From Escherichia phage vB_EcoM-G3F7, in the sequence record MZ234035.1: a stretch of DNA of 64,000 bases; one strand, given 5' to 3'. Below, in pieces: positions 21,084 through 38,852 of this stretch (within the stretch, counting starts at the first letter, position 1; each line of letters starts with the position of its first letter). A model generated the notes under the pieces. The model made no database searches and had not been told where the DNA came from. It saw nothing but the letters and a program-made list of their open reading frames with translations. Both the position numbers and the translations under genes were made by a program.

Positions 21084-21086
21084 AAT

Positions 21087-21108: not shown

Positions 21109-21146
21109 TAAGGGAAATTATGATTCCGACATAAAGGAAAGTTTAA

Positions 21147-21704
21147 ATGCAGAAAACGAATCCGGGTTTGCAGAGACTATTTCAGATTCCGTCATTTACC
21201 CTATCGAACAGTGACTTGACTAGTGAAATGAAGGTCAAAATTGCTGATACTGCAAGATACTCTTTAAAACAAAACCCGAACCAGGATAAAGCAGAAGTTA
21301 TCGAAAGATGTCGTATCGCTGTGTACGCAGAGTTTTTTGTGGCAGATTGGCTAAGAGGGTATGTTAACAAAGGCCAAGAGGATGTTAATGACCCGTATAC
21401 ATACGCATGGGATGTACTGGCGCATCCAAAATACTGCGGGCTTCGTGTAGAAGTTAAGACACATCAAACTGACTCACGTTGGATTTCGGTAACAACAGGA
21501 TGCAGCGGAGAGTATCCATATGGTTCTGGAATAAATCTAGGGCCCATTCTAAATCATCAAGTCGCTGACTGTATAATTATATTCAACACTAAAGAAATTC
21601 ATCCAGGTGTCATCCAGTACACTCCGAAGTTCATCGGTGACAGAGAAGACCTTCGTAAGGTTGTAAGAAAAAGCAACTACAATGGATGGTATCTTTCCAT
21701 TTAA
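21147..21704 (+). CDS. denB: Endonuclease IV DenB
   Basis: 185 aa, size and synteny (after rIIB) as in T4. Confidence 0.8.
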   Translation: MQKTNPGLQRLFQIPSFTLSNSDLTSEMKVKIADTARYSLKQNPNQDKAEVIERCRIAVYAEFFVADWLRGYVNKGQEDVNDPYTYAWDVLAHPKYCGLRVEVKTHQTDSRWISVTTGCSGEYPYGSGINLGPILNHQVADCIIIFNTKEIHPGVIQYTPKFIGDREDLRKVVRKSNYNGWYLSI

Positions 21705-21720
21705 AAATTTTCACAAAACG

Positions 21721-21750
21721 GTTTACATACCACAAGGACTGTGGTACTAT
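21721..21750 (+). promoter_or_regulatory. T4-type early promoter (member of repeated promoter cassette)
   Basis: GTTTAC 21721-21726, 18-nt spacer, TACTAT 21745-21750. Confidence 0.5.
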
Positions 21751-21777
21751 ACAACTATCAGCTACGGAGGAGTAAAA

Positions 21778-22041
21778 ATGAAATTTAAATTTTATTACGC
21801 TAAACATAAAATTACCGGTGAATTTATTGCATTTACGACTTCAACTACAGATGAAGGAGATATTTTTACTGCAGTATTTTTATCAAAATGGGAATCAGAT
21901 CAACCTTACTTATCATCACGTGAAGATCTCCAACGATTAGTTAATGGAGAATATAATGATTCATGGTCATATTTAGTCCATGATTGTGTTAAAAAGGCAA
22001 TAAAACAAAAACACTTGGAAATCGTTGAGATTGAACTATGA
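21778..22041 (+). CDS. Hypothetical protein (87 aa)
   Basis: Track ORF 21682..22041 runs through the promoter; ATG 21778 follows GGAGG with 7-nt spacer. Confidence 0.5.
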   Translation: MKFKFYYAKHKITGEFIAFTTSTTDEGDIFTAVFLSKWESDQPYLSSREDLQRLVNGEYNDSWSYLVHDCVKKAIKQKHLEIVEIEL

Positions 22042-22120
22042 GTTCATTATGGTGGTGTTTCGTTTGGTTAATTAGTATTCCATTAATTTGTTTAACATTT
22101 ACTTTTGTGATGAGGTTATT

Positions 22121-22219
22121 ATGAAAATTTTGAATTCTGTGCTTATTGCTTGTGCGTGGTGGGTTGCGCAAGTTTCAGCAGTAGTAGTTGGTATTCACAT
22201 TTATTACGAATATTTTTAA
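22121..22219 (+). CDS. Tiny hydrophobic peptide (32 aa)
   Basis: Hand-translated MKILNSVLIACAWWVAQVSAVVVGIHIYYEYF. Confidence 0.3.
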   Translation: MKILNSVLIACAWWVAQVSAVVVGIHIYYEYF

Positions 22220-22284
22220 AAAAGTTGTTTACAAGACTGTTCTTCCGTGGTATTATTACCCTATCAACTACGGAGGAACAGAAA

Positions 22285-22398
22285 ATGAAAAAGATTGTTA
22301 AAGCTATATGGAATGTAGTTATAATACTAATAGTTTTGAGTATATTCCCAATCGTTTTAATGATTGATGTATTAAACGCTTACTTTGGATTTATGTGA
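22285..22398 (+). CDS. Tiny transmembrane peptide (37 aa)
   Basis: Track ORF 22150..22398 N-terminus overlaps a promoter; ATG 22285 follows GGAGG; MKKIVKAIWNVVIILIVLSIFPIVLMIDVLNAYFGFM. Confidence 0.4.
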   Translation: MKKIVKAIWNVVIILIVLSIFPIVLMIDVLNAYFGFM

Positions 22399-22405
22399 GG
22401 AAAAT

Positions 22406-22603
22406 ATGAAGCGTAAACGCAGTGCTTTTACATTTATTGAATGGTTTTTCGATAATATTTTTCCGGCTTTATTCATTTTCATGCTGATTTTTGCTTTAGG
22501 TTCAGTTGTAGTTGGAATCTATTTGATGACAGTAGTCGGAATTGATATTCATCAAAATGGTTTAAAATCCGTAGTTGAAACAATTTGGAACGGTGTAAAA
22601 TGA
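22406..22603 (+). CDS. Small transmembrane protein (65 aa)
   Basis: Track ORF 22385..22603; ATG 22406 follows GAGGAAAA. Confidence 0.4.
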   Translation: MKRKRSAFTFIEWFFDNIFPALFIFMLIFALGSVVVGIYLMTVVGIDIHQNGLKSVVETIWNGVK

Positions 22604-22710
22604 TGAATTTGCTGAGCGGTTGGTTTTATATTCTTATGTTTTACATTGGCGCAAATTTTCCATATTGGATGGGATGGTCAACAACTGCGTTTGGATTTTA
22701 TACTCCTTGA
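22600..22710 (+). CDS. Tiny hydrophobic peptide (36 aa)
   Basis: Hand-translated MMNLLSGWFYILMFYIGANFPYWMGWSTTAFGFYTP; ATGATGA overlap with upstream stop. Confidence 0.3.
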   Translation: MMNLLSGWFYILMFYIGANFPYWMGWSTTAFGFYTP

Positions 22711-22718
22711 GGTGAATT

Positions 22719-22934
22719 ATGAAAATCTTTAAAGATGTAAAAGTTGGTGAAATTTTCTGTTTAGATAACGGTGATCAGTTAATTCGTATTTCACCTCTTA
22801 AGAGCACTAGCGAGAAACCGACAGTTAACGCTACTTTAGCAAACAATAGTAATGAACGTTTCTGTATTGAAAATGATACTGAAACTTATACCGTAGAAGA
22901 GTTTTGGGAATTGAGCGTCGACTGCGACGATTAA
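22719..22934 (+). CDS. Hypothetical protein (71 aa)
   Basis: Track ORF, ATG after GAGGTG. Confidence 0.45.
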   Translation: MKIFKDVKVGEIFCLDNGDQLIRISPLKSTSEKPTVNATLANNSNERFCIENDTETYTVEEFWELSVDCDD

Positions 22935-22994
22935 TTTAATGGCCGTGTGTATTCATGCGGCCTTGGAGTAGAAAATAATTTAGAGGAAATTAAT

Positions 22995-23453
22995 ATGAAA
23001 TACATGACTGTTACTGATCTGAATAATGCAGGCGCTACCGTTATTGGTACAATCAAGAACGGTGAATGGTTTTTGGGAGTTCCACATAAAGATATTTTAT
23101 CTAAACCTGGATTTTACTTTTTAGTAAGTAAATTAGATGGTCGTCCATTTAGTAATCCATGTGTGTCTGCACGATTTTATGTAGGTAATCAGCGTTCTAA
23201 GCAAGGATTTAGTGCGGTTCTAAGTCATATTCGTCAACGTCGGTCTCAGCTTGCGCGTACTATTGCAAATAACAATGTTCCATACACAGTATTTTATCTG
23301 CCTGCTTCTAAGATGAAACCTCTGACTACGGGATTTGGAAAAGGTCAGTTAGCTTTGGCGTTTATTCGTAATCATCATTCTGAGTATCAAACACTTGAAG
23401 AAATGAACCGTATGTTGGCTGATAACTTTAAATTCGTTTTGCAGGCATATTAA
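22995..23453 (+). CDS. ndd: Nucleoid disruption protein Ndd
   Basis: Track ORF 22947..23453; from ATG 22995 the sequence [18 protein letters not shown]... matches T4 Ndd as recalled. Confidence 0.85.
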
Positions 23454-23533
23454 TGAGTAATTTCCACAACGAACATGTGATGCAGTTCTATCGTAATAAT
23501 TTTAAAACTAAAGGCGTCTTCGGACGCCAGTGA
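23453..23533 (+). CDS. stp: Stp peptide (26 aa), activator of the host PrrC anticodon nuclease system
   Basis: Hand-translated [26 protein letters not shown], identical to T4 Stp as I recall it; TAATG overlap with ndd stop; contains GGCGTC-TTCG-GACGCC hairpin. Confidence 0.8.
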
Positions 23534-23540
23534 GGAAAAT

Positions 23541-23699
23541 ATAAATATTGCAAAATTATTAGGAGTTATTTCATTTATTTGTTGGATAGTAGCATGTGTT
23601 TTAACTATCTGTATTGATGTCAGCAGTGTGTTTTCGCAAGCTTTAGCTCAGGGTATGTGTGCATATTTAACATTTGTGTTGTTATCTACTAATGATTAA
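23541..23699 (+). CDS. ac: ac-like small membrane protein ORF without an in-frame AUG at its 5' end
   Basis: 52-codon hydrophobic frame INIAKLLGVISFICWIVACVLTICIDVSS...LSTND after GAGGA; possible AUA/AUU initiation or an inactivated gene; position between stp and 52 as T4 ac. Confidence 0.3.
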   Translation: MNIAKLLGVISFICWIVACVLTICIDVSSVFSQALAQGMCAYLTFVLLSTND

Positions 23700-23832
23700 G
23701 AAAATCTTGGGCTATTCATTAGCCCTTGCTATTTTATTGATAGCATTATATTACGGAATAATGTTCGGATTAATTCAAGTCGTGCTTTTCATTTCTGATG
23801 TTATTATGGCACTACATTCACTAGTATGGTAA
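23692..23832 (+). CDS. Small membrane protein (46 aa)
   Basis: Hand-translated MIKKILGYSLALAILLIALYYGIMFGLIQVVLFISDVIMALHSLVW; ends 4 nt before gene 52. Confidence 0.4.
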   Translation: MIKKILGYSLALAILLIALYYGIMFGLIQVVLFISDVIMALHSLVW

Positions 23833-23836
23833 ATTT

Positions 23837-25165
23837 ATGCAACTGAATAATCGTGATTTAAAAAGTATCATTGATAATGAAGCATTGGCTTATGCTATGT
23901 ACACGGTTGAAAATCGTGCCATTCCAAATATGATTGACGGATTTAAGCCAGTTCAACGATTTGTTATTGCTCGAGCTCTTGATTTGGCACGAGGAAATAA
24001 AGATAAGTTTCACAAACTCGCTTCTATCGCAGGCGGTGTAGCGGACCTTGGATATCATCATGGTGAAAACTCTGCGCAAGACGCAGGTGCTTTGATGGCT
24101 AACACTTGGAATAATAACTTTCCTCTGTTAGACGGTCAAGGAAACTTTGGTTCTCGTACTGTCCAAAAGGCAGCAGCAAGTCGTTATATTTTTGCTCGTG
24201 TAAGTAAAAATTTCTATAACGTATATAAAGATACTGAATATGCTCCAGTACATCAAGATAAAGAACACATTCCGCCTGCTTTCTATTTGCCTATTATTCC
24301 TACTGTTCTTCTTAATGGCGTTTCCGGTATTGCAACTGGTTATGCAACTTACATTCTTCCTCATAGTGTTTCTTCTGTCAAGAAAGCTGTACTGCAAGCT
24401 CTTCAAGGAAAGAAAGTAACTAAACCGAAGGTAGAATTCCCAGAATTTCGTGGTGAAGTCGTTGAAATTGATGGGCAATATGAAATTCGTGGAACATATA
24501 AGTTTACTTCACGAACTCAAATGCATATCACTGAGATTCCATATAAGTATGATCGTGAAACTTATGTGAGTAAAATCTTAGACCCGCTTGAAGATAAAGG
24601 CTTCATTACATGGGATGATGCTTGTGGTGAGCATGGCTTTGGCTTCAAAGTTAAATTCCGAAAAGAATACTCTTTGAGCGATAATGAAGAAGAACGCCAT
24701 GCAAAAATTATGAAAGACTTCGGGTTGATTGAGCGTCGTTCCCAGAATATTACCGTCATTAATGAGAAAGGAAAGCTGCAAGTTTACGATAATGTAGTTG
24801 ATTTAATCAAAGACTTCGTTGAAGTTCGTAAAACTTATGTCCAAAAACGAATTGATAACAAAATCAAAGAAACTGAATCAGCATTTCGTTTAGCTTTTGC
24901 CAAGGCACATTTCATTAAGAAAGTAATTTCAGGTGAAATTGTTGTACAAGGTAAAACTCGCAAAGAACTGACCGAAGAACTTTCTAAAATTGATATGTAT
25001 TCTTCTTATGTTGATAAACTAGTTGGAATGAACATTTTTCATATGACTTCCGACGAAGCAAAGAAACTTGCTGAAGAAGCTAAAGCCAAAAAAGAAGAAA
25101 ACGAATATTGGAAAACTACTGATGTAGTTACAGAATACACCAAAGATTTAGAGGAAATCAAATGA
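23837..25165 (+). CDS. 52: DNA topoisomerase II medium subunit gp52 (GyrA-like)
   Basis: 442 aa; matches T4 gp52 as recalled. Confidence 0.93.
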   Translation: MQLNNRDLKSIIDNEALAYAMYTVENRAIPNMIDGFKPVQRFVIARALDLARGNKDKFHKLASIAGGVADLGYHHGENSAQDAGALMANTWNNNFPLLDGQGNFGSRTVQKAAASRYIFARVSKNFYNVYKDTEYAPVHQDKEHIPPAFYLPIIPTVLLNGVSGIATGYATYILPHSVSSVKKAVLQALQGKKVTKPKVEFPEFRGEVVEIDGQYEIRGTYKFTSRTQMHITEIPYKYDRETYVSKILDPLEDKGFITWDDACGEHGFGFKVKFRKEYSLSDNEEERHAKIMKDFGLIERRSQNITVINEKGKLQVYDNVVDLIKDFVEVRKTYVQKRIDNKIKETESAFRLAFAKAHFIKKVISGEIVVQGKTRKELTEELSKIDMYSSYVDKLVGMNIFHMTSDEAKKLAEEAKAKKEENEYWKTTDVVTEYTKDLEEIK

Positions 25166-25311
25166 GTCCATTCATTGGTATCACAAGCGCTGCATTAGTA
25201 TCTGGTGGCATTTTACTGGCGGGTTTAGGTGTTGTTCCTGCCGTAGCAGGAGGTCTTCTTGCGTTCGGAATTCAACGTGTTATCATGACAGTTATCACAG
25301 TCATGCAGTAA
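25162..25311 (+). CDS. Small membrane protein (49 aa)
   Basis: Hand-translated MSPFIGITSAALVSGGILLAGLGVVPAVAGGLLAFGIQRVIMTVITVMQ; ATGA overlap with gene 52 stop. Confidence 0.4.
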   Translation: MSPFIGITSAALVSGGILLAGLGVVPAVAGGLLAFGIQRVIMTVITVMQ

Positions 25312-25316
25312 TTTTA

Positions 25317-25341
25317 GGGAGAGCCTCGGCTCTCCCTTTTT
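25317..25341 (+). terminator. Rho-independent terminator
   Basis: GGGAGAG...CTCTCCC stem-loop followed by TTTTT. Confidence 0.55.
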
Positions 25342-25366
25342 ATTTCAAAAATTTTTTCACAAAACG

Positions 25367-25396
25367 GTTTACAACCAAAGCATACTGTGGTACTAT
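25367..25396 (+). promoter_or_regulatory. T4-type early promoter (repeated cassette)
   Basis: GTTTAC 25367-25372, 18-nt spacer, TACTAT 25391-25396; cassette shared with 42716-42769. Confidence 0.5.
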
Positions 25397-25445
25397 ACAA
25401 CTATCAAATAAATGAACTGAAACAAACAACCCGGAGATACAAAAA

Positions 25446-25673
25446 ATGAAATTTAAAATCGAAAACGAAATCGTTAAAGCTAAAAATGCTCTGACTGCTA
25501 ACAAACTGGTTGTAGATGGTATTGAATATGATATCTGTGGAGTTCGTGAAGAAAAACCTGGTGTTCTGACTTTCTTCACAATGATTTTTAAATTTAAAGG
25601 TGACACAGAATTCAAACAGTTTGATTTTGCCCATGAAGACGAAATCGAAGTTCGTAATCTGAACATTAAGTAA
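25446..25673 (+). CDS. Hypothetical protein (75 aa)
   Basis: Track ORF, ATG start after promoter. Confidence 0.5.
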   Translation: MKFKIENEIVKAKNALTANKLVVDGIEYDICGVREEKPGVLTFFTMIFKFKGDTEFKQFDFAHEDEIEVRNLNIK

Positions 25674-25778
25674 GTACTTTATTAGAGCTCTTGAAAAAGA
25701 GTGCAAAAAAGTGTTTACTTCTGCTTTAAACATGATACTATAGACCTATCAAATAAATGAACTGAAACGGAGATTAAA

Positions 25779-26414
25779 ATGTCTAAAGTAACTTACATCA
25801 TCAAAGCTTCTAACGATATTCTGAATGAAAAAACTGCTGCGATTTTAATTACCATTGCTAAGAAAGATTTCATTACAGCTGCAGAAGTTCGTGAGGTGCA
25901 TCCAGATTTAGGCAATGCAGTAGTTAATAGTAATATTGGGGTATTGATTAAAAAAGGCCTGGTGGAGAAATCTGGTGATGGATTAATCATTACTGGTGAA
26001 GCTCAGGATATTATTTCAAATGCAGCAACTTTATACGCACAGGAAAACGCTCCGGAACTGCTGAAAAAACGAGCAACTCGTAAAGCTCGCGAAATTACTT
26101 CTGATATGGAAGAAGATAAAGACTTCATGTTAAAACTTTTAGATGAAAATGGATTTGTTCTTAAAAAGGTTGAAACTTACCGCAGTAACTATCTCGCTAT
26201 TTTAGAAAAACGCACTCACGGAATTCGTAATTTTGAAATTAACAACAATGGAAATATGCGAATTTTTGGATACAAAATGATGGAACATCATATTCAGAAA
26301 TTTACTGACATCGGAATGTCATGTAAAATCGCTAAAAACGGTAATGTGTATCTTGACATTAAACGTTCGGCAGAAAACATTGAAGCTGTAATCACTGTAG
26401 CATCTGAACTGTGA
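25779..26414 (+). CDS. motA: MotA, activator of middle transcription
   Basis: 211 aa MSKVTYIIKASNDILNEKTAAILITIAKKDFITAAEVREVHPDLGNAVV...; matches T4 MotA as recalled. Confidence 0.9.
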   Translation: MSKVTYIIKASNDILNEKTAAILITIAKKDFITAAEVREVHPDLGNAVVNSNIGVLIKKGLVEKSGDGLIITGEAQDIISNAATLYAQENAPELLKKRATRKAREITSDMEEDKDFMLKLLDENGFVLKKVETYRSNYLAILEKRTHGIRNFEINNNGNMRIFGYKMMEHHIQKFTDIGMSCKIAKNGNVYLDIKRSAENIEAVITVASEL

Positions 26415-26424
26415 GGAATAAATA

Positions 26425-26754
26425 ATGAACAAGTTAGAAATTGTCAATGAACTTCGTCGTTGTGTAGAACCTACTCAAGAGGGTTGGGACATCTGGTACC
26501 ATGGAGCTTATCTTGGAACTATCGTAAAGATTAAGACTGGCAAATACATGATTATTCGTGAAAGTAAAGATGCTCCAGTAGGTATTCGCAATAATTTCAT
26601 GGCAGCTATAAGTTCCTTTATGGATTCAGCTTACGAAATTTACCTTGCTGATTATAAAGAATTCCATGAATCTCAACCAGTTATTCGCTCAATTGGTGTT
26701 AACAAAGCTCAACAGAAAACTTTATGGCAACGTATTAAAGGATGGTTTAAATGA
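26425..26754 (+). CDS. Hypothetical protein (109 aa)
   Basis: Track ORF, ATG after GAGGA. Confidence 0.5.
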   Translation: MNKLEIVNELRRCVEPTQEGWDIWYHGAYLGTIVKIKTGKYMIIRESKDAPVGIRNNFMAAISSFMDSAYEIYLADYKEFHESQPVIRSIGVNKAQQKTLWQRIKGWFK

Positions 26755-26906
26755 AAACATTTAAAATTGTCGTAGAATTTTATAACGGCGAAGGTGTAGT
26801 CCATCTTAAAGCGGCCAACCAGTTTGATGCGGTAAGAGTATATTGTCAATGCTTTGAAAGTTCTAAACAAGCTATAAAAATTAAAAGTGTTGAGGAAACC
26901 AAATGA
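26751..26906 (+). CDS. Hypothetical small protein (51 aa)
   Basis: Hand-translated [51 protein letters not shown]; ATGA overlaps at both ends. Confidence 0.35.
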
Positions 26907-27370
26907 AAACCTTCAAAGAGCGTCTTGAATTATTAGACCTGGCTTTATTACGTGAAACTCCAGAAAGTCTAGCAGCTAAATTACAGGCCTATGGCGACTA
27001 CACCGAATATACGGAAGAGGATGTTTTAGAAGAGGTTCCTGAAATCTGTTGGCAAGTAGCTCATTGGAACAATAATGAAAAATATCAACGTCGAATTGTG
27101 TGTGCAGCCAACCGCTTTAAGTTAAAAGATGGTGGGACTCTGGTTATTCCTGGTGCTCGTCATTATTCTAAAGATATGGCTGAAGTTCTTGACCAGGTAA
27201 GTGATAAACTTGTATCAGACCATGTTTGTGGTGAAGACCAAGGATTTATTGACCAGTATAGCAATTACTGGACACGTGAAGAAGCAATGATTATTGCAAC
27301 TTACGCTGGACAAGTGCGTATTGAACGTGGTGGTAGTGAAAAAGAACTTTACTCTGAGGACCTTTACTAA
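26903..27370 (+). CDS. Hypothetical protein (155 aa)
   Basis: Track ORF, ATG after GAGGAAA. Confidence 0.5.
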
Positions 27371-27666
27371 TGAATATTAAAAAGTTTCAAATTGATGGAA
27401 TTAAGAATCAAATCCAGGCGTTGGAATATGCCAATAAAATGATGTCAACTAATTGGGGAATTTATACAAATGAACCGGCATTTCAGTTCTGTGATATGGA
27501 ATTCACTAAAAAGCTCGTAGGAAAAGATTATGTATGCCCATTTAGTTTTCCGGTAAATGGAATGCTAAAACCTGCTTTACGCGATCTTTATATTGCGATG
27601 AACGAAGAAATGATAAAAGAATTAAAACGTCAACTGAAGGTGATTCAATTTGGCCAGGGAAATTAA
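27370..27666 (+). CDS. Hypothetical protein (98 aa)
   Basis: Track ORF, TAATG overlap. Confidence 0.5.
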   Translation: MNIKKFQIDGIKNQIQALEYANKMMSTNWGIYTNEPAFQFCDMEFTKKLVGKDYVCPFSFPVNGMLKPALRDLYIAMNEEMIKELKRQLKVIQFGQGN

Positions 27667-27868
27667 TTCAAAATCTGATTATTTTAATTCTCTCAATGAT
27701 AAAGATAAAAATCTAATACGGCATTTTATTGTTGAGATGGGATATACTGATACACGTGATTTAAGAGAACATATATTTGAATGTGGTGTAGCTAAAAAGT
27801 TTTCATTCACATGCAAATGTTTAAGAGAGGTAATTCAGCATTATGAACAATTTAGTCGCAAAACATAA
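27650..27868 (+). CDS. Hypothetical Cys-containing small protein; start uncertain (TTG 27650 or ATG 27737)
   Basis: Track ORF begins with TTG overlapping the upstream gene. Confidence 0.3.
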   Translation: MAREINSKSDYFNSLNDKDKNLIRHFIVEMGYTDTRDLREHIFECGVAKKFSFTCKCLREVIQHYEQFSRKT

Positions 27869-27951
27869 TTTTAATAAAGCTTCTGTCCATAAAGATAAGA
27901 AGAAAGCGTTTAAAGAATCTAATCGCAAACAGAAACATAAGGGGAAGGTCT

Positions 27952-28230
27952 ATGATTATTGATTCTCAATCTGTGGTTCAATATACAATCAAAATTGATA
28001 TTCTAGAAAAGCTATATAAGTTTCTACCAAATTTATACCACTCAATTGTTAATGAATTAGTTGAAGAACTACATCTTGAGAATAATGATTTCTTGATTGG
28101 AACTTATAAAGACCTCTCAAAAGCAGGATATTTTTACGTAATTCCAGCTCCAGGAAAAAGTATTGATGATGTATTAAAAACTATAATGATTTATGTCCAT
28201 GATTATGAAATTGAAGATTATTTCGAATGA
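27952..28230 (+). CDS. arn: Acidic protein, candidate Arn (anti-restriction DNA mimic) by size and position
   Basis: 92 aa, Asp/Glu-rich, between motA and asiA where T4 arn lies; AAGGGGAAGG SD. Confidence 0.4.
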   Translation: MIIDSQSVVQYTIKIDILEKLYKFLPNLYHSIVNELVEELHLENNDFLIGTYKDLSKAGYFYVIPAPGKSIDDVLKTIMIYVHDYEIEDYFE

Positions 28231-28379
28231 GTTATAATCTTGAAATGGTAATCGAGCATAATGTAGCTCAGGAACGTGAGTCGTTCAAGGAATTCGTAGA
28301 AAAAATTTTTGAAGAAAATAACACAGACCAGTTTACAAATCAAACGTCTGATGATATTATAACAAAGTCAACTAATTGA
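28227..28379 (+). CDS. Hypothetical small acidic protein (50 aa)
   Basis: Hand-translated MSYNLEMVIEHNVAQERESFKEFVEKIFEENNTDQFTNQTSDDIITKSTN; ATGA overlap. Confidence 0.35.
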   Translation: MSYNLEMVIEHNVAQERESFKEFVEKIFEENNTDQFTNQTSDDIITKSTN

Positions 28380-28392
28380 GTGGTATAAGTTA

Positions 28393-28665
28393 ATGAATAA
28401 AAATATTGATACAGTTCGTGAAATTATTACTGTTGCGTCTATTTTGATTAAATTTTCCAGAGAAGATATTGTTGAGAATCGCGCTAATTTTATTGCATTT
28501 CTGAATGAGATTGGAGTAACGCATGAAGGTAGAAAGTTAAATCAGAATTCATTCCGTAAAATTGTTTCTGAATTAACTCAAGAAGATAAGAAAACCCTCA
28601 TCGACGAATTCAACGAGGGTTTTGAGGGTGTATATCGATATCTAGAGATGTATACGAACAAATAA
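28393..28665 (+). CDS. asiA: AsiA anti-sigma-70 factor
   Basis: 90 aa MNKNIDTVREIITVASILIKFSREDIVENRANFIAFLNEIG...; matches T4 AsiA as recalled. Confidence 0.9.
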   Translation: MNKNIDTVREIITVASILIKFSREDIVENRANFIAFLNEIGVTHEGRKLNQNSFRKIVSELTQEDKKTLIDEFNEGFEGVYRYLEMYTNK

Positions 28666-29322
28666 TTATTTAGCCCTTCCTAATATTCTGGCCGCCTGAG
28701 CACATATTGATTCAAGGCGGTCATTACTTATATGATCATTTCTATACCAGTACATGGTTATTGTTCCAGCATAGATATTATCCAAATTAAAATATGGACA
28801 ACTGTACATGTAGTTTATTTCGGGAGTAGGCTTTTTAGTTGGTAAAAAAGCAAATTTTGAGTCGGAATAATAATGACGTCCATTTAAATGAACTGTATAT
28901 TCATCCATAGTTTTATCAACAGGATATCCTCCAAGTGATTTTTCACTTATTGTTGAAGGTAATTTTCCTTCATATGCTATAATATCAACAAAATAGTTTA
29001 AGTTTTTAGGGCGGAAAGAATACACCGCACTAAAGTCTGCCTCAGATGATATATGAACTATCTGGAGTTGTTCCAGGGCGACAGATTCAAAGCGTGCATT
29101 TCTTTCCTTTTCAATAATTTCACTGTATGTTTCATACTTTGATTGCTTATAGTACTCAAAGAAACTATCTCCCCTATACCAAACAATCGCCATCATAAAT
29201 AAAAGAATTACGACAGCTACCCGGGAAGCAAGAACTTTCCCGGTAGCGTTATCTTTGAACAAGCGATCTAGAACACCAAACAGAATACCAGAGGGCGAAA
29301 ATGATATTCTAGGTGCTGCCAT
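28666..29322 (-). CDS. t: Holin T
   Basis: 218 aa with N-terminal TMD and large periplasmic domain; matches T4 T as recalled; AGGAGGG SD. Confidence 0.9.
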   Translation of the reverse strand: MAAPRISFSPSGILFGVLDRLFKDNATGKVLASRVAVVILLFMMAIVWYRGDSFFEYYKQSKYETYSEIIEKERNARFESVALEQLQIVHISSEADFSAVYSFRPKNLNYFVDIIAYEGKLPSTISEKSLGGYPVDKTMDEYTVHLNGRHYYSDSKFAFLPTKKPTPEINYMYSCPYFNLDNIYAGTITMYWYRNDHISNDRLESICAQAARILGRAK

Positions 29323-29355
29323 AGACCCTCCTTTTAAGGGTATTTATTCACATTA

Positions 29356-29552
29356 TACTCTTGGACCATATATTGCTCCAACATTTTGCCATGTTGGAGC
29401 GGACCCTATGACAGCATAACCAGCAGCGCCGCCATTATATTCAGATCCTTGACCGCGAATATTGCATCTACCTCCCGCGGAACCTACTTCACCACCGTTT
29501 CCACCATTATAGATACCATTCACGGATCCTGAGCCAGGTGCAGAAATAGAAT
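29356..29552 (-). other. 38: gp38 C-terminal coding segment lying in a different frame from the main gp38 ORF
   Basis: Minus-strand frame offset by one nt encodes ...[63 protein letters not shown] with stop at 29353-29355. Confidence 0.55.
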
Positions 29553-30107
29553 AGATCCTCCTGGCGCACCAAAAGGACGACCGCCACCACCACCAAAGGT
29601 CAATCTCATTCGTGAAAAAGGAGAATAATATCCGCCGCCGCCACCGCCGCCACCGCCTGCAATAGCTCCGCCATTATTAATTCTTAGTCTCCCACCAATA
29701 TCGTTTTGAATACAATGACCTCCAGCTGAGCCAGGACTATTGCTACCGCCATTACCTCCACGACCATACATCGTTACGCCATGTATATTTAACTGAACAT
29801 ATTCATTTGGTGTATCTCCGTACATGAAGAATAAAGGAACATCTTTAGAATAAGAAACGATATCACCAACAATATTGAATACAATAGGTGCACCGCCAGC
29901 TTCAAAGCATCTATCACGGAACCACTGACCATTAAAATTGTGGTTTGCTCCTACAGTATGAATAATTTCTCGTGAGCGACCTGCAAATTGACTCATCCAG
30001 CAAGGAACACCCAATCTTAATTGACCAGCCGCTTGACTCATCCAGCGCTGTCCTGTTTCATTTGCGGCTGAACTTCCAATCCAACCAGGAACACCAACTA
30101 CTGCCAT
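29520..30107 (-). CDS. 38: Tail-fibre adhesin gp38, T2-type with glycine-rich motifs; ORF ends prematurely at an apparent frameshift
   Basis: 195-codon [16 protein letters not shown]...[35 protein letters not shown] then out-of-frame tail; not the T4-type gp38 chaperone. Confidence 0.7.
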
Positions 30108-30120
30108 AATTTATACTCCA

Positions 30121-30139
30121 AAGGGGGCATTTCCCCCTT
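30121..30139 (-). other. Perfect 7-bp stem-loop between genes 37 and 38
   Basis: AAGGGGG-CATTT-CCCCCTT between gp37 stop and gp38 SD; no U-tract, so more likely an RNA structure than a terminator. Confidence 0.35.
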
Positions 30140-30143
30140 GTTG

Positions 30144-33092
30144 TTAGAATTTAAAATATTTACTAATTTTGCGAGCAATTTTAGTAAAGAGAGGCGTTTT
30201 CAATTCTTTAATTTCTTCACTCATTTCCTGAATAGCCTTAATTAAAAGAGCATTCACAGCAGAGTTAGAAATTGTCAGAACATCAGATCCATCAACTTCA
30301 ACTTTAGATACAGCTTCCGGTAATTCCTTTTCAAGGTCCTGAGCAATAATACCAACTTCACGTTTAATAACACTACGGTCTTTAATAGACTTAACTTTAT
30401 CGTAAATATAAACTTTCAGTCGGCAAACTTTTTCGACTGCTCCATATTCTAATTCTTCTTTATTAATCTTGAGACGGGAGTCAGAACGAATATACACATC
30501 GCTAAAGCTACCATTTCCTGGTGTATAAAAGAATCCATCATGATGGAATTCAAACACAGCTTGTGGGTGTCCAGCATCAGGAGAAGCCTCCGTGGATCCG
30601 ACACGAATGATTGCTTGCCCCCACTGTGATGGAATACGACGCATACCAAAGTCAACAGCGGTGCTATATCCTTGATTGGTTATAACGCTTCTTGCTTTAA
30701 GAATAGGATAATAACTATCTTGACCAACATAACCATGATCAACGAATAATGGAGCTTCTACTCGCCATTGGTTGCCCCAATCACCCGGTTGTCTAGCAAT
30801 CCATCCAGAACCGTTAATGTGTACACGGTCACGGTTAACGTTAACCATTGCGGTATTTTGCGGGTTTAACGCAATCTCACCATTGTTTGTGATATGTACT
30901 GCCGCCTGAGAAGCATAGCTATAAAATGCTAGCGAATTATCAGCACCACCCTTGCCAATATACCAGTTACCAGTCCCGTCTATGTCACCGCGAATATGCA
31001 AAGAATTACTAGCAGTTGTTGATAATACAATAGAATCATTAGGTGCATTGATTGTTAACCGACCTGTCATCGTATCACCGCCTTTACCTAGGCGAGTATT
31101 CAAGGCAGCATCTAAATTGGTTGCATCGTTGTATTTCTTCCAGATTGAACCAGCAATGTTACCATCAGTGTTCAAGAATGCTGCGCCAGCATAAACTCGG
31201 CTTTGTGACATGAATCGGCCAGACGGCAAGAAACGCCATATAGCTAATTCAGTGGCTGTAGTTCCAGTAGCGGATAAATCACCCTGAGCAACGATACGAT
31301 ATTCTGAACTAGCAATATCCATACCAGAAGCCATAGTAATATTTGTTACAGTGTTTTTCTGTTTAACAATTGGCGCAAACTGGTTTTTATTTGAATCGTC
31401 AATAGCCTGATATAATGGCGCAATGGTAGTATTCTGATTTGCGTAAGTATTAGAACCAGAACCGCTAGCAGGGGCTTGAATATATGCTCCTGGAGCAAGT
31501 GAAATTTTCTGATTAGCACCAAGATTAACAGCAGCAGTGATATTCAGCAATCCCCTAAAGTTTTGTTGAGCAGTCCAAGTGTGTGATCCGTCTTCAAGAA
31601 CAACACGACGACAAGTATTAGTCCTACTTCCTGGATTACCAGCGATACGAACAACGAAATAACGATAGTTCGCCTGAGATACAGTACCGCGCCACACTTG
31701 AACAGTTCGACCCGTTCCGGTATGTTCGCTAGGACCGACAGAAAACATAACCAGGTTTCCATCAATCGTGCCCCAATCCATATTTGCTGGCATATTCTTT
31801 ATTTTGTTCAAAGGAACACTAAACATACTACCAGGGACAAAATCAAAGGTTTGCCAATCTAACTCCGCTAATTGAGCTTTAATACCACCCATACCCAAAG
31901 TAATTGGCAGAGAATAAGATGTATATACTTCGTTCCATGCACCCCACGCACCACCAGTATATGCACGCTCAAAAATACGATCGCGAGTAGTTGCACCCGT
32001 TCCTGCGGTAGTGAAACGTTGGAAAATAGCACCGCCAGAAGCACGCTGTTTAACTTCCAGCAAACCAACAATAACAGTCGGCAAACCTTCACCTGTAGGA
32101 CAGTTAATAACGGCATCAGTGCCTAAAATATTATATAACCCGGGAGTTTTAAAATCATTCAGATCTCCATCATAGAAAGTCGCTGGTGTGCCATGACCAA
32201 CCTGCTTCCATTCCTCCCACTTAGGTGCACTAGCATCCCATGCAGCAGCGAGACAACGAGTATAAACCATACCCATGCGGGTAGTATAACGCTGAGTTCT
32301 CGTGTATAAACCACCTTCAAATATTTCTAAAAATCCTTGTGCGGCTGATCCTTCTTCTGGATAATGGCGATCAAATGATGCGATTGCGCTTGAACTGTTT
32401 CGCCATAAGCCACAATGTTCTAATTTTCCCAAGCTATCAAGGTCAATCGTTTGTGAAAGTGGACGAGTTGACGCTTGAACATTACGCCACACACCCCATG
32501 GACCATCGACGCCATTCCATTTAGCAGATAAGGAACGAATATAGACGTTACCAGATCTTACAGTATAACGCTGAGTGCCAGCAAATTGGCCGGCCACAAA
32601 CACTTCTAGTACACCTACGGCATTTTCTTCTGGGAATTTATTTGCTGGTTGCGCATTTGTTGAAGTAGATTTCGACCAAACACCAAGATATTCTTCAATG
32701 GGCCCATACGTATCTAAATTAGCATCAGTAGGTAATTCGCCATTATTTTTTATAAATGTTGTGCTATTGACATTTATGTCAGATGGAGTTAAGGTAATGT
32801 CCTTTGACCCATCAAAAGATATACCATTAATTTTCCTAGGTGTTTGCAATTTAGTAGCTGTGCTAGAATTTCCAATTAAAGTTCCAGTTATATTTTCTGT
32901 AACCTCTAAAGACCCATTTATAGTTCCTCCATATTTTAAACCTAATTCTATAACACTACCTGAGTCATCTTTTGTGAAAATTGTTTTATCTTTTAAGTTT
33001 ATAGCCAATTCACCTTCGGCTAATACTGAAGCAGCAGGACGTTGACCTGCAGTTTTGCTTCTTTTAAATTGTATTTGTTTTAAAGTAGCCAT
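30144..33092 (-). CDS. 37: Long tail fibre distal subunit gp37 (T2-type)
   Basis: 982 aa; N-terminus [13 protein letters not shown] conserved with T4 gp37, remainder divergent from T4 as I recall it. Confidence 0.88.
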
Positions 33093-33100
33093 AAGTCCTC

Positions 33101-33751
33101 TTAATAATAGCCGAAATCTTGAACAGAATCCTTAATTACGATTTGGTCAAATCGTGGAACGTGTGAAGGTTGAGATGCAGGATTCTGTGAAAAAAGGTTT
33201 GGCGCAGTTAAATTTCCTGTCATAGTGTCTCCAGAGCGTAATACCCTAGAGTTTGCATTTGCTGTAACAGTATTTATTGCTCCATCAACATAATCTTTGC
33301 GAGTAACATCAGATGCTGCGGAAGGAGTAGATGTAACAGTTACCGATGGAGCCGTTACAGCCCTGGTAAATGTTGTCAAACCTTCTGGCGTAATAGTAAT
33401 TTGTCCAGTAGTGATTTCACTACCTGCAGGTCTAAAACTAATACCACCGGAAGAGCCGCCAACTACAAGAGTATTACCAGTGCCGCCACCAGAACGAATT
33501 CGGATAGGGGTTTCATTATTACTTAATTGAAGATAACTATTTACCCCGTAATTAATAGTAATTGGACCGGCGTAAGTACCACCATTAGCTTTAGAAACGA
33601 AATCGTTATCAGCTGCCTGCGGTTTATTATATTCTGAATATATTTTAAATGATTTGTAGAGTACATCGTCACCGGCTGAATTCAATGGAAAATTTCCTTG
33701 ATGCCAAATGACAGATCCACCCACAGTTGAACCTACTTTTAAATCAGCCAT
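33101..33751 (-). CDS. 36: Long tail fibre hinge protein gp36
   Basis: 216 aa; N- and C-termini match T4 gp36 as recalled, central part divergent. Confidence 0.88.
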
Positions 33752-33774
33752 TATATGCCCCTTTATTTTAATAT

Positions 33775-33782
33775 TATTTATA
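33775..33782 (-). promoter_or_regulatory. T4 late promoter TATAAATA (minus strand) upstream of gene 36
   Basis: Plus-strand TATTTATA is the reverse complement of TATAAATA, ~25 nt upstream of gene 36 ATG. Confidence 0.55.
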
Positions 33783-33790
33783 AAGAAAAA

Positions 33791-33808
33791 GGGAACCCGA
33801 AGGCTCCC
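33791..33808 (-). terminator. Stem-loop terminator after gene 35 (minus strand)
   Basis: Minus strand GGGAGCC-UUCG-GGUUCCC followed by U-rich tract. Confidence 0.5.
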
Positions 33809-33813
33809 TCAGT

Positions 33814-34929
33814 TTAAACTTCTCTAAATTCCTGTCCAAACACTTTGCCAGTTTTAGAAGAGGCTTGTGTAGGAAGTACCATTATATCTGGAGGTGAAGC
33901 CGATTCACAGACATAATTAACGCGAATACCGTTGACGCCAAATTCGGCAGGTTTTGAAATGCCGCCATTTCTTGATACTTCAGAAAAACTTAAATTTCTC
34001 ATGCCGCCTTGACCTGCTTGAGCAGTTCTTTGTGCATATATCGTAAATCCTACGGCGTTTTCTGGAACAACTACATAGTCTTCTTTTAATTCCCAAGACC
34101 CAGCTTGCCCAGTAAACTCAGCTTGGGTCGAGGAAATATATCCATTTGATGCATCATAAAAACGAATGGATATGTTTGTAGTTCCAAGATCAAGTAAATC
34201 AGCATCAGCATATAACTGTGCTTTAAGATAAAGAACATCACCGGGAATTAAATTATAGTCAGAAAGTTTACTTATAGCAGCTGAAGTTGGCAATCGCGCA
34301 ATTTCGTTATTAGTTCCACCAACTGCTGACATGAATTGCTCTACACTTTCATAAGTTCTTTTTGGAAATCCTGTCGCTCCGACGTCTTCTAAACTATCAA
34401 ATACAACATCTAAAATAGTTTGATAATCATCTGTGCTTTTTCTATTACTTAGTTTAACATGCTCTAATGCAATAGCTCTTTTAGAAGAAGTATAAAAAGC
34501 AGCATATGATACGTCAAATCTTGACAATACTGAATCTGATGGAAAAACTGAAGTTCCTGCTCCCCTTAACCAAGATACCACTTCAGGAGGAAAATTAACC
34601 TTTCCGCTAGTTAATATAGCAACAAGTCTATTGTTTGACAAAGAATTCATGAAACTGACAAAAGCGGCAGATGTTGTATTGTTTGAAGCAGAAAAAGCAT
34701 ATGACTTGCTATCAACTAATGCTCCCGTAGAAGGGTCAAAAACTCTTAAATGAAGACCTGCACTAAATGTTTGATTTCCAACGGGATTATCCTGAAATTT
34801 AACATATGGCCCCGCAGTAGAAAGCGGGCAAGAACCCGCTATGCTTATTTTGTATCTTACTGAATTACTTTCCGATAAAAATGGCGTTTGGACGTATCCT
34901 TGTCCAAACTCTGCCATAAATTTTTCCAT
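33814..34929 (-). CDS. 35: Long tail fibre proximal connector gp35
   Basis: 371 aa MEKFMAEFGQGYVQTPFLSESNSVRYKISIAGSCPLSTAGP...; near-identical to T4 gp35 as recalled. Confidence 0.9.
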   Translation of the reverse strand: MEKFMAEFGQGYVQTPFLSESNSVRYKISIAGSCPLSTAGPYVKFQDNPVGNQTFSAGLHLRVFDPSTGALVDSKSYAFSASNNTTSAAFVSFMNSLSNNRLVAILTSGKVNFPPEVVSWLRGAGTSVFPSDSVLSRFDVSYAAFYTSSKRAIALEHVKLSNRKSTDDYQTILDVVFDSLEDVGATGFPKRTYESVEQFMSAVGGTNNEIARLPTSAAISKLSDYNLIPGDVLYLKAQLYADADLLDLGTTNISIRFYDASNGYISSTQAEFTGQAGSWELKEDYVVVPENAVGFTIYAQRTAQAGQGGMRNLSFSEVSRNGGISKPAEFGVNGIRVNYVCESASPPDIMVLPTQASSKTGKVFGQEFREV

Positions 34930-34937
34930 AATACCTC

Positions 34938-37900
34938 TTATTCAACCCATTCAAATTTAACAGTTTTATTCACTGGGTCAGGAATAATGCGAACATTACC
35001 AATTCGTAAGAAATCACGAATAGTAAGATTACCTATTATTCCATTATCAGATGGGATTGCTCCTATATCCGAAGGTTGAGGAGGGTTACCTCCATCAAAT
35101 ACCTGAACAAAACTTGACCAAGAATTTTTAGTTTTCTGCCATGTACGCGTCCAGCGAGTGGTACGTGCTTCTGGAGTCGTTGGATAAGTAATCCAATCTT
35201 GGTAAAGCGAATCAAGTGTGTTACCAAACTGAGTCAATGTACCAGGAGATTTAACTTCTTCGCCACGTTCTAAGTATGGAAGTCCAGTCACTTCATTAGT
35301 TTTTTCAACCATTTTAAAATAACCTGGGAACTGATTATAAGTGGCTGAATCGTTAATATCAATTGACCAGAATCCTACAGTATCAGATGTTGGAGCGCGG
35401 GTGTATAAATCAGATGTTTTAGTGCCCTGAGAACGAATTCTCGAGTTAACAGTTAAACCACCTGAATTTATAGTAGCACCTTTGGCAATGATTAAGCTTT
35501 CACCAATCGTTACTTGGCCAGATGCATTATTAATAGCTAAAGGACGTAATCCATTAAATCCACCAGTCTGATCACCCGATGCAGTAAGCATAAAATTCGT
35601 TACTGATCCATCATTGCGAACAATGAAACCATAATTTCCGTTAATAGCACGGAAAGCATTTGCGCTTCGAGAAATAATTTCACCAGTTGCAGTGACTGAA
35701 TTACCAAATGTTGCTACACCATTTGCATTCAATGTTCCTGAAGCATTAACATTTATCGGTGTTACTGTACCGTTGATATTAAATGTTATATTTCCAGCTT
35801 TATTACGCTGAGAATAAAAATGACTAGACGTTTCATCACTAACTTCAAATACGGTAGAACGTGTTGTGTCTGATTCCCCGCTAAATTGATTTCCCCACAC
35901 TCTGACTGTCATCGTTTGAGCCGGGTTTGTTCCAGTTTGAGGTCCTTTCTCAAAAATCAGACGAGTTGCCGTTCCAGTATTAGAAATAGTTAATGTACTA
36001 TTTGCTGAAACTGATCCACCGAATGTAGCAGTACTAGATGATACAAGAGGGGCACCCAGATTCGTTTGTTGGGTTAAGGTTAGTGAACCATTAACTGTTT
36101 GTGCAATGTCCCTACGAATGAACTGGAGCGAATCTAGACCATCTAATAAATTACTATCTACAGCTTTTGCTTTTAATGGCAAATAATTTGCTAATACGCG
36201 ATTTAATTCATATGGTGATACTGCATAACCATTTTTCTCATATGATTCTAATGGCTGTGTTGAACCTACCGTATCATTACCAACAAACGTTAATGAACCA
36301 GAAGAAGTTTTAACAAACCCTCTTATCAGAGTAGTTGCTGCCCAAGTTGGTTCACTCTGCACAATCCATTTTAAATTTTTTGGAGATACAGCAGTATTTG
36401 CTGACGTTCCAGTCACAGTTTCAGACTGAGTTGCAACTTTAATAACACCTTCTTGCGATTCGGTAGATTTAGTACCTAAAAGCTTTTTAGGAGTTATTAA
36501 AACATTATCTAATGTTCCTGCAGCAGCTTCAACTTGTGTAGCTACACGAAGTGTACCACGCTGTGTCTCATTTGCTTCAAGAATATTAAGGGTATAATGG
36601 TCCCAGAGAGTTCCTGATTCAACTAATCCAGATAGAGCAACAACAGAAGTACGATCAGTACTATTAAATCTGGTTTTAATTTTTAATGGTGTAGAGATAC
36701 GAGTATCGTCGACGCCTGCGTCGAATTCAACTTGCGTAGCAATTTCAGCTATACCACTTAAACTTTCAGTTGCTCTACGGTCATTTAAAGTTTTAGGAGT
36801 GACTGCGCGAGTATAATCAGTTCCTGTATTAACTTCGCTTTGCGTAGCAATTTCAATTAAACCAATTCTTCCATCAGTTGATGTCTTTTTATGTAACGTT
36901 TCTGGTGTTACAACCGCATTTGCCCATCCTTCTTGGCTTTGTCCAGCAATTACTTCACTTTCAACTGCTAAAATTACTGCGCCTTGTTGCGTTGGAGTAG
37001 CTTTATACTGATCCAAAGCTTTAGGTGAAACAACTAAATTATTAGTGTTTTTATTATAAACATTCGTACCATTTAATTCACGACTAGAAGCTGGAGTAGC
37101 TCCTGCGGTAGATACAAAAGTTACAATACCAGATAATGATTCAGAACCTTGACGAGCTTGAAGCTTTTTAGGAGTGATGATTGTAGTATCATCAGTACCT
37201 GTATTAGTTTCCTGCTGCGTAGCAATTTCAGCGACACCTCTACGAGTTTCTGTAGCAGTTCTTTCATTCAGCTTTTTAGGAGTGATGATAAGGTCATCTG
37301 CAAAAGAGAATGTGGTGTTCTGATTTACTTGAGCAGTAGTTGCTATTCTTGCAATACCTCTGCGAGTTTCAGTAGCAGTACGATTAGCTAACGTTTCTGG
37401 AGTAATTGCCAATTCTTTTTGCGGAGAATTTTCTAAATCAGCATTTGCTTGAGCTTGTGTAGCTAAAGCAATTACGCCTAATCTTGCTCTAGTAGAAGCA
37501 TTTAAAGAGTCTACTCTTTCTACAGTTGGAACGTTTTGCTGTACAACCCAGTATTTTCCATCAGAATCTTCTATATAAGCAAGTTGTAAAACTGGAACAT
37601 AATTAGTTTCACCGTTAAAAACTAATTCTTGAACTGTTACCCATTCAGCTTCAGGCGGATATTCTGAACGTTTTGGGAATTGCAGCAATTGAACTGAAGA
37701 AGCAATTTTATCTTCACCAGCAGCTTTGATTTTAACTGTTTGTCCTTTTCTCATGTAATTCATGGAAATTTTAACAGTATCACCAACAGAAATATCAGTC
37801 GGAAGCTGAAGTTCAATTGTTTGGGTTGTTCCATTATTCGCGCCAAATACCATGACTTCTTCATTTGGACGAATATTTGAATTAGTTGTTATAATGCGTA

Positions 37901-38807
37901 AACGTGCTTTACTATCCCCGTCAAACAATCTCCACAATTTCTCATTATCGTCAAACATCAAGAAACCGTCAATCGATGTACGGCCTTCAATGGAATGAGT
38001 TCCAACTTCTTGTACTGAAGTCGTTTCATCGTATGTAGTAACAATTGTATGATAAAGTGGATTCAGTTTATCTAAATCAACGAAATTAATAATATCGCCA
38101 TGATTAGCAAATCTCGGAAGTTTAACATTAATTGGTGCAGCAGAAGTAAATCTACGTACGATAAAATCATTAGATTGTGCTTGATACGCAGTCGATGGAG
38201 TAACAATCGCAGCTTCTCTGCTATAATCAGCAACATACATTTGCCACAAACGATTATTAAAAATGAATATCATCTGTGACTTTGGATGAGTCATTAAAAC
38301 TGAACGTACTTGTTCACCTCTAAAATTGACAATACTCTGATTTGAAGAATTTATTTTAACCTGATTTATGCCAGGTTTTCCACCGATATCTTGAATTATT
38401 ACGGTTTCTCCATCAAGCGGAGAAGGTGGTAAAGTAAACTCAATGTCATTGCCAACTGATGTATCTACTGAAATTGCTTCTCCGGATTTTAATTGATATG
38501 GTCCAGATGATACAGTTGTATATACAGCATCAGTACGTAATGCTTTCCAACGAATTCTATTAAAATTTCCAGCAGGTTTTGGAATATTATCCGTTGCTGC
38601 CCAAAAACGATTATTATAAATGATTACAAAATCTTTTAAATATCCACGAGTTGGATCATATTGCTGAACTGTGTTTTCTTGAATTAAGTAATCAACGTTA
38701 ACACCGTCAGTTCCTACGGTACGATCAGCTAAAGCTACGTTGATTATTTTATCGCCACCTGCGTCCAGACCATCTTCTGCTCTGAACTTTCTTTTAATCT
38801 CGGCCAT
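34938..38807 (-). CDS. 34: Long tail fibre proximal subunit gp34
   Basis: 1289 aa, same length as T4 gp34; repeated TPKKL/ATQ motifs. Confidence 0.93.
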   Translation of the reverse strand: MAEIKRKFRAEDGLDAGGDKIINVALADRTVGTDGVNVDYLIQENTVQQYDPTRGYLKDFVIIYNNRFWAATDNIPKPAGNFNRIRWKALRTDAVYTTVSSGPYQLKSGEAISVDTSVGNDIEFTLPPSPLDGETVIIQDIGGKPGINQVKINSSNQSIVNFRGEQVRSVLMTHPKSQMIFIFNNRLWQMYVADYSREAAIVTPSTAYQAQSNDFIVRRFTSAAPINVKLPRFANHGDIINFVDLDKLNPLYHTIVTTYDETTSVQEVGTHSIEGRTSIDGFLMFDDNEKLWRLFDGDSKARLRIITTNSNIRPNEEVMVFGANNGTTQTIELQLPTDISVGDTVKISMNYMRKGQTVKIKAAGEDKIASSVQLLQFPKRSEYPPEAEWVTVQELVFNGETNYVPVLQLAYIEDSDGKYWVVQQNVPTVERVDSLNASTRARLGVIALATQAQANADLENSPQKELAITPETLANRTATETRRGIARIATTAQVNQNTTFSFADDLIITPKKLNERTATETRRGVAEIATQQETNTGTDDTTIITPKKLQARQGSESLSGIVTFVSTAGATPASSRELNGTNVYNKNTNNLVVSPKALDQYKATPTQQGAVILAVESEVIAGQSQEGWANAVVTPETLHKKTSTDGRIGLIEIATQSEVNTGTDYTRAVTPKTLNDRRATESLSGIAEIATQVEFDAGVDDTRISTPLKIKTRFNSTDRTSVVALSGLVESGTLWDHYTLNILEANETQRGTLRVATQVEAAAGTLDNVLITPKKLLGTKSTESQEGVIKVATQSETVTGTSANTAVSPKNLKWIVQSEPTWAATTLIRGFVKTSSGSLTFVGNDTVGSTQPLESYEKNGYAVSPYELNRVLANYLPLKAKAVDSNLLDGLDSLQFIRRDIAQTVNGSLTLTQQTNLGAPLVSSSTATFGGSVSANSTLTISNTGTATRLIFEKGPQTGTNPAQTMTVRVWGNQFSGESDTTRSTVFEVSDETSSHFYSQRNKAGNITFNINGTVTPINVNASGTLNANGVATFGNSVTATGEIISRSANAFRAINGNYGFIVRNDGSVTNFMLTASGDQTGGFNGLRPLAINNASGQVTIGESLIIAKGATINSGGLTVNSRIRSQGTKTSDLYTRAPTSDTVGFWSIDINDSATYNQFPGYFKMVEKTNEVTGLPYLERGEEVKSPGTLTQFGNTLDSLYQDWITYPTTPEARTTRWTRTWQKTKNSWSSFVQVFDGGNPPQPSDIGAIPSDNGIIGNLTIRDFLRIGNVRIIPDPVNKTVKFEWVE

Positions 38808-38849: not shown

Positions 38850-38852
38850 CCT

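Follow-up and report, generated by a model that had tools for sequence, protein, structure and literature searches.

The question raised by this locus is whether the adhesin gene 38 of Escherichia phage vB_EcoM-G3F7 is a broken gene, a gene whose frame is restored during translation, or an intact gene that was wrongly recorded. We addressed it in a stretch of 64,000 nucleotides from sequence record MZ234035.1, which is referred to here as the window and numbered from its first base. In this window gene 38 occupies two reading frames of the minus strand. The ORF 30107..29520 starts with an ATG at 30107 and runs for 195 codons to a TGA at 29522..29520, and the -1 frame is open from 29673, ends with ...GAIYGPRV and stops at a TAA at 29355..29353. 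Only the GTG-started portion of this second frame (29523..29353, 56 aa) appears in the program-made ORF list.

Both pieces match gp38 profiles in Pfam. The 195-aa ORF matches PF21721 (Gp38_N) over residues 1-42 with an E-value of 5e-20, and PF05268 (GP38) over profile positions 1-142 of 218 with an E-value of 4e-53, while for the 56-aa ORF downstream the match covers GP38 positions 166-218 (E 5e-13). Profile positions from about 143 to 165 are deleted or out of frame, leaving no complete single-frame GP38 domain from GRM1 to the C-terminus. The two-frame layout is therefore not a chance arrangement, and the Pfam matches bear out the original prediction that ORF 30107..29520 encodes the front of a T2-type gp38 whose remainder lies in a second frame. 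Moreover, gene 38 has the standard T2/T6 synteny, being located on the late strand directly downstream of gene 37 and upstream of the holin gene t, in agreement with its earlier assignment as a T2/T6-type adhesin gene between these two neighbours. The closest record found is MZ234038.1 (Escherichia phage vB_EcoM-G3F10, Tequatrovirus gee4498), the remaining records listed giving weaker matches. The features of the region are the following.

33775..33782, minus strand: late-promoter motif TATAAATA upstream of gene 36, found by motif scan.
30144..33092, minus strand: gene 37, long tail fibre distal subunit, 982 aa, intact, with a Peptidase_S74 domain.
29550..30107, minus strand: 5' part of gene 38, codons 1-186 (M1..I186) in the native frame, 100% identical to gene 38 of G3F10.
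29549..29550, no strand: deletion junction, from alignment and base-by-base comparison with MZ234038.1.
29520..29549, minus strand: out-of-frame tail of the truncated gene 38 ORF, 9 missense codons (LFLHLAQDP) followed by TGA 29522..29520.
29353..29547, minus strand: 3' part of gene 38 stranded in the -1 frame, codons I197..V260 of intact gp38 and a TAA, with a Pfam GP38 match.
28666..29322, minus strand: holin gene t, 218 aa, intact, with a Phage_holin_T match and its own Shine-Dalgarno sequence AAGGAGG.

Codons 1-186 of gene 38 span the Gp38_N attachment domain, most of the β-helix, GRM1-GRM3 and HVS1-HVS2, and the stranded part spans the remainder of HVS3, GRM4, HVS4, GRM5 and the conserved C-terminus. 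Upstream, the gene 37 product carries the gp38 attachment at its tip, and an identical product was found only in G3F10-type records. The motif TATAAATA is likely to be the start of the 36-37-38 late transcript, judging from what is known of T4; its position is suggestive, and copies of the late-promoter motif are no more numerous in the window than expected by chance. The 36-nt spacer between genes 37 and 38 contains a G5/C5 stem-loop at 30122..30136 (minus strand GGGGGAAATGCCCCC), which scored as terminator-like on the plus strand; the stem in the T6 spacer is shorter (GGGG...CCCC), with a different loop.

Base-by-base comparison with G3F10 revealed the cause of the split. Window positions 1..29549 correspond to 32001..61549 of MZ234038.1 and positions 29550..64000 to 61578..96028, with zero further mismatches over the 64,000 bases and a common coordinate origin (window base 1 is record base 32001). 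The 28 nt absent at the junction are GATATGCAATCAGGCGCGACTGGCGGTA (mRNA sense; MZ234038.1 61550..61577), and the window reads TCTATT followed directly by CTATTTCT. Alignment with G3F10, WilhelmHis and T6 shows a single gap of 28 columns: the relatives read GGATCTATT-GATATGCAATCAGGCGCGACTGGCGGTA-CTATTTCTGC and carry the 28 nt in frame, whereas the window reads GGATCTATT-CTATTTCTGC. Similarly, when positions 29300-30150 were compared by megablast with 50,697 phage records (an annotated collection dated August 2025), the best matches spanned the 851-base query with 879 subject bases. Codons D187..G195 are missing in full and T196 lacks its first base (DMQSGATGGT). As 27 + 1 nt are lost, the codons past the junction lie in the -1 frame and the zero frame stops after 9 missense codons. 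We are thus highly confident that gene 38 is interrupted by a single 28-bp deletion private to this sequence.

This result modifies the original prediction in several respects. The frame switch had been placed within 29541-29555, which is right as an approximate location, the exact discontinuity given by the alignment being between 29550 and 29549. It had been described as a one-nucleotide offset, whereas the real cause is a gap of 28 nt (9 codons + 1 nt) with respect to all relatives, and the expected size of about 255 codons has to be corrected to the 260 aa of the intact protein. The options listed at that stage included an indel or an inactivating mutation, and the 28-nt deletion is of this kind.

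The placement of the deletion is unique, since no base can be moved across either breakpoint. A 1-nt indel or a homopolymer error is ruled out by this one uniquely placed 28-nt gap; moreover, no 1-nt correction would restore the wild-type protein, because the deletion also removes ten residues of a receptor-binding loop. The pentamer CTATT is found on both flanks of the gap, with both copies kept, and reflects a repeat at the protein level (GGSI / GGTI). No microhomology between the breakpoints was found at the junction, and repeat-mediated slippage was rejected as a simple mechanism, slippage from one CTATT to the other being expected to delete 33 nt in frame. A hairpin-mediated deletion was rejected as well: neither the local inverted repeats nor the DNA fold stands out (z = -0.8), and the arms lie off the breakpoints. 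Hence no hairpin or repeat accounting for the breakpoints was found around the site.

In the relatives examined, gene 38 occupies a single frame of about 260 codons. Gene 38 of G3F10 (QZI82673.1, annotated as 'receptor recognizing protein') is a single CDS of 260 codons, whereas the window copy stops after 195; its neighbours are the same as in the window, with gene 37 upstream and holin t downstream. In relatives the gene is annotated as one CDS of 260-261 codons, and the best tblastn matches consist of a single full-length piece in 59 cases out of 60. The search for gp38 proteins returned 185 homologues, and nearly all of the 120 listed measure 256-268 aa. Six short or representative homologues were viewed in full, and all six keep the ...TWQNxGAIYGPxV C-terminus (...TWQNVGAIYGPRV or a close variant). 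Short homologues are either cut at the N-terminus or in-frame GRM2-GRM3 fusions, and none of the homologues examined ends where the 195-codon ORF ends, the counter-evidence to a split that had been specified beforehand. In an alignment of 38 diverse homologues the GRM3-GRM4 segment measures 39-49 aa, bar one frameshifted outlier, and no homologue without the ten deleted residues is present among the 38.

Several of these public sequences call for comment in their own right. Four homologues (P0020, P0041, P0053 and P0093) have no HVS2 owing to an in-frame GRM2-GRM3 fusion, whereas deletion of HVS2 was non-viable in the T6 deletion analysis; they could be real short forms or assembly collapses of GGN repeats. 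P0108, a 272-aa protein from a public Logan assembly, reads ...GSVGEGSLVHIQAVRVVMSVLLEEDVILKV... in its C-terminal part, which looks like an out-of-frame translation of gene 38 and hence like another frameshifted gp38. P0001, from the 155-member gp38 cluster closest to the phage, bears the NCBI source name 'receptor-recognizing protein [Bacillus cereus]'. As the protein is a coliphage adhesin, this label almost certainly reflects a contaminated or mislabelled assembly.

The lesion was also sought in larger collections. The junction sequence is absent from IMG/VR, from JGI metagenome contigs and from a set of one genome per GTDB species, and no gene on record in a 153-billion-gene index encodes the exact 195-aa product. 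Only two contigs encode a gp37 identical to that of the window: MZ234031.1, where the adjacent gp38 is intact at 260 aa, and a second one, presumably G3F10 itself. The nearest parallel comes from HP3.2 (OP978391.1), a Tequatrovirus obtained by in vitro directed evolution, which like the window carries a frameshifting deletion in gene 38, in its case with respect to its sibling HP3.1. This deletion measures 11 nt, compared with 28 nt in the window, and lies in the N-terminal part near codon 50 (about 451-452 of the HP3.2 locus against 452-462 of the HP3.1 locus; alignment columns 163-173); the gene is given in GenBank as an N-terminally shortened CDS of 216 aa. No literature on G3F10 and no paper describing HP3.2 was found, and gp38 is unmentioned in the HP3.1 paper.

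The consequences for the protein can be predicted from the known structures of the family. The gp38 of phage S16 docks on the gp37 trimer through N-terminal helices, which are followed by a five-ring β-helix; two excursions from this β-helix form a three-layer sandwich of ten polyglycine-II (PGII) helices, and five distal hypervariable loops of the sandwich constitute the proposed receptor site (PMC6851490). PGII helices 3-10 belong to the second excursion, after which the chain returns to the β-helix (PMC6851490). The intact protein matches the receptor-binding domain of PP01 gp38 (PDB 9V85) with an E-value of 1e-75 and S16 gp38 (6F45_D) with an E-value of 1e-50. An AlphaFold (AF2) model of P0001, a close homologue that represents the top-hit cluster and stands in here for the intact form, has a pLDDT of 87, with values >90 through most of the receptor-binding domain, and is matched by Foldseek to 9v85 (E 5e-27, TM 0.88 normalised to the target) and to 6f45_D (E 2e-21). 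Thus the S16 gp37-gp38 tip and PP01 gp38 display the architecture of the intact form: an N-terminal helical attachment domain, a β-helix, and a PGII sandwich with distal loops. Differences lie in the hypervariable loops and in the receptor, which is OmpC for S16 and PP01, whereas Tsx is predicted here.

The fold seen in 6F45 and 9V85 cannot be completed by the truncated ORF. The deletion begins directly past GRM3, at the start of HVS3 (numbering of Trojet et al.), and, by alignment, removes the counterpart of loop C in PP01 gp38 (N184-W189; PMC12892980); the Gly-rich stretch that comes after this loop is also lost. The BamHI and SacII marker sites of T6 g38 (Trojet et al., PMC3157838) occur in the same segments and in the same order in the window, with BamHI (GGATCC) at 29529..29524 in HVS3 and SacII (CCGCGG) at 29489..29484 in GRM4. 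The product of the window allele would comprise 186 native residues followed by 9 missense residues. It would retain the N-terminal helices through which gp38 docks on the gp37 trimer and, as predicted from the sequence, would be deprived of the remainder of HVS3, GRM4, HVS4, GRM5 and the conserved C-terminal strands. Alignment to S16 gp38 suggests that PGII helices 6-10 and the receptor loops C, D and E would be lost as well, together with the C-terminal β-strands that close the central β-helix; indeed, strands 242-256 of the P0001 model come after the truncation point, and the truncated product has no residues 187-260. With these strands, helices and loops missing, the receptor-binding polyglycine sandwich would be unable to form.

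Work on T6 indicates what such a product would mean for the virion. T6 gp38, a T2-type adhesin that binds Tsx, is 95% identical in amino acid sequence to the G3F10 protein. Its five GRMs and four HVSs (PMC3157838) are arranged as in the intact G3F10 protein. By this similarity, the intact allele probably also uses Tsx as its receptor (PMC3157838, PMC12032242). Trojet et al. (2011) have shown that amber mutations directly before GRM3 or GRM5 of T6 g38 give normal-looking virions that neither adsorb nor form plaques, and in-frame deletions of HVS1, HVS2, HVS3, GRM2, GRM3 or GRM4 were recovered in 0/220 screened recombinants (PMC3157838). Furthermore, a T4/T2 chimera without gene 38 needs plasmid-encoded gp38 from its host cells in order to form plaques (PMC12892980). 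The window allele is truncated inside HVS3, between the two T6 amber positions, and resembles the adsorption-defective T6g38am mutants; given this position, it is expected to be null with respect to adsorption. The particles of a phage with this genome should thus look normal and yet be unable to adsorb.

A null allele in an essential adsorption gene, with zero other differences and the same coordinate origin as G3F10, favours an artefact or a defective derivative. The most likely origin of the gap, in our view, is therefore an event at the level of the sequence (assembly, consensus or editing) or a non-propagating or trans-complemented derivative, and we do not believe that a free-living phage has this as its working genotype. 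Within this reading, an artefact or an edit of the sequence has a somewhat better than even chance of being the explanation, and a real but defective or complemented mutant keeps a substantial minority share.

A genuine mutation in a real phage population would have the same biochemical consequences as those described above, its origin alone being different, and we regard it as possible rather than probable. Candidates are a knock-out propagated on a host that provides gp38 in trans, a defective genome maintained with wild-type helpers at high multiplicity, or a variant that lost adsorption under resistance or selection. The ends of the gap are sharp and unambiguous, and a clean gap of 28 nt with no homopolymer or repeat-collapse signature is atypical for a base-calling or assembly error. 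In addition, trans-complemented gene-38 deletion phages have been made and used (PMC12892980), T6 g38 amber stocks exist (PMC3157838), and the deposition of HP3.2 with its 11-nt gene 38 deletion indicates that such genotypes enter databases from real stocks; P0108, with its out-of-frame gp38 C-terminus, also comes from a public assembly. However, on ordinary hosts the allele is expected to abolish plaque formation, neither such a record nor the junction or the product was found in the collections searched, a designed knock-out would normally be larger than 28 nt or in frame, and no other mutation is present in 64 kb.

The recoding event that the original prediction had listed among its options fails every test made: there is no slippery heptamer, the two-frame layout occurs in no relative examined, and G3F10 has a single ORF. 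Functional recoding is granted at most a very small chance. Ribosomes could in principle restore the frame by a -1 frameshift within the 29673..29520 overlap, or by a 5-nt forward hop in which the peptidyl-tRNA-Ile moves from AUU (29552..29550) to an identical AUU (29547..29545), a pair made by the tandem CTATT-CTATT. Either route would yield a gp38 without some 11 residues of loop C, the product of the hop being devoid of D187-I197. The -1 frame is indeed open across the junction, the two AUU codons are 5 nt apart with the moderately rare CUA in the A site, and low-level hops between matched codons, as well as a 'savior indel plus compensatory frameshifting', have been documented (PMC5009743). 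Nevertheless, we judge frame restoration very improbable. A codon-by-codon scan revealed no X_XXY_YYZ heptamer in the overlap 29673..29520 or anywhere in gene 38; the sole U_UUU sites, at 29619 and 29574, are both upstream of the junction, so that a slip there would scramble HVS2, GRM3 or both. CUA accounts for 7.7% of the Leu codons in the long ORFs of the window and is thus uncommon, not starved. Spontaneous hops between matched codons are inefficient.

The relatives argue in the same direction, as a two-frame gene 38 was found in none of those examined (the three aligned at the DNA level, 59/60 of the best tblastn matches in one piece, and nearly all of the 120 listed homologues with 256-268 aa). 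Since the otherwise base-identical G3F10 has a single ORF, any recoding signal would have to arise from the deletion itself. Moreover, not one of the 38 aligned natural homologues lacks the deleted residues, and in T6 no viable phage with HVS3 deleted in frame was obtained (PMC3157838), a deletion that the loop-less product of a hop resembles. A weak terminator-like hairpin at 29578..29555 (minus strand) has a U_UUU site inside it, not upstream, and is followed by CTATTCTATT. Its T-rich tail is a by-product of the deletion junction, and this hairpin is therefore probably meaningless. Transcriptional slippage was also considered and rejected: the longest runs are T5 and T4, which are too short for it.

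Comparison with the bypass of T4 gene 60 leads to a similar picture. Identical codons (AUU ... AUU here) around a short untranslated stretch (CU) are the only shared feature, and a formal one. The conserved arrangement of T4 gene 60 combines a 50-nt insert with a GGA take-off codon beside a stop codon, a take-off stem-loop and a signal in the nascent peptide; the window has 28 nt fewer than its homologues and no such elements, and its arrangement is unique to this sequence. In the window the matched AUU codons flank a 2-nt gap, the A-site codon is the sense codon CUA, and no take-off hairpin is evident. The view that this is a viable phage with a true gap, in which a hop or a low-level frame correction makes enough gp38 without loop C (ΔD187-I197), is therefore one to which we attach hardly any credence. 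If this view were true, receptor binding would be retuned or throttled by a savior indel together with compensatory recoding.

The idea of a two-piece adhesin, in which translation stops at TGA 29522..29520, re-initiates at the overlapping GTG (29523..29521; GTGA, with AGGA just upstream) and yields a 56-aa fragment that joins the 195-aa fragment, is negligible since this fragment is unable to replace the missing segment: residues 187-204, which comprise loop C and part of the PGII helix after it, would remain absent or be replaced by missense residues, PGII helices 3-10 form one continuous excursion by S16 homology (PMC6851490) that is modelled confidently here, only 3 nt separate AGGA from GTG, and no split gp38 was found among the homologues examined.

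The split of gene 38 thus reflects an ordinary knock-out deletion or a sequence error; a deletion, with no recoding signal, accounts for what had looked like a recoding candidate. Nothing new in kind is involved, as we are dealing with a simple disruptive deletion in gene 38 of a T6-like Tequatrovirus, which belongs to a well-characterised adhesin family, and its biological weight is small: the protein is a well-studied T6-type gp38, and the public twin genome has the gene intact. In annotation, the locus should appear as a disrupted gene 38 or a pseudogene (28-bp deletion with respect to MZ234038.1), and neither as two genes nor as a recoding site. For predictions of host range or receptor from this sequence, the intact G3F10 allele is the one to use unless the gap is verified. 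An infectious stock that truly carried the gap would be at odds with the published findings that HVS3 and the C-terminal half of gp38 are essential.
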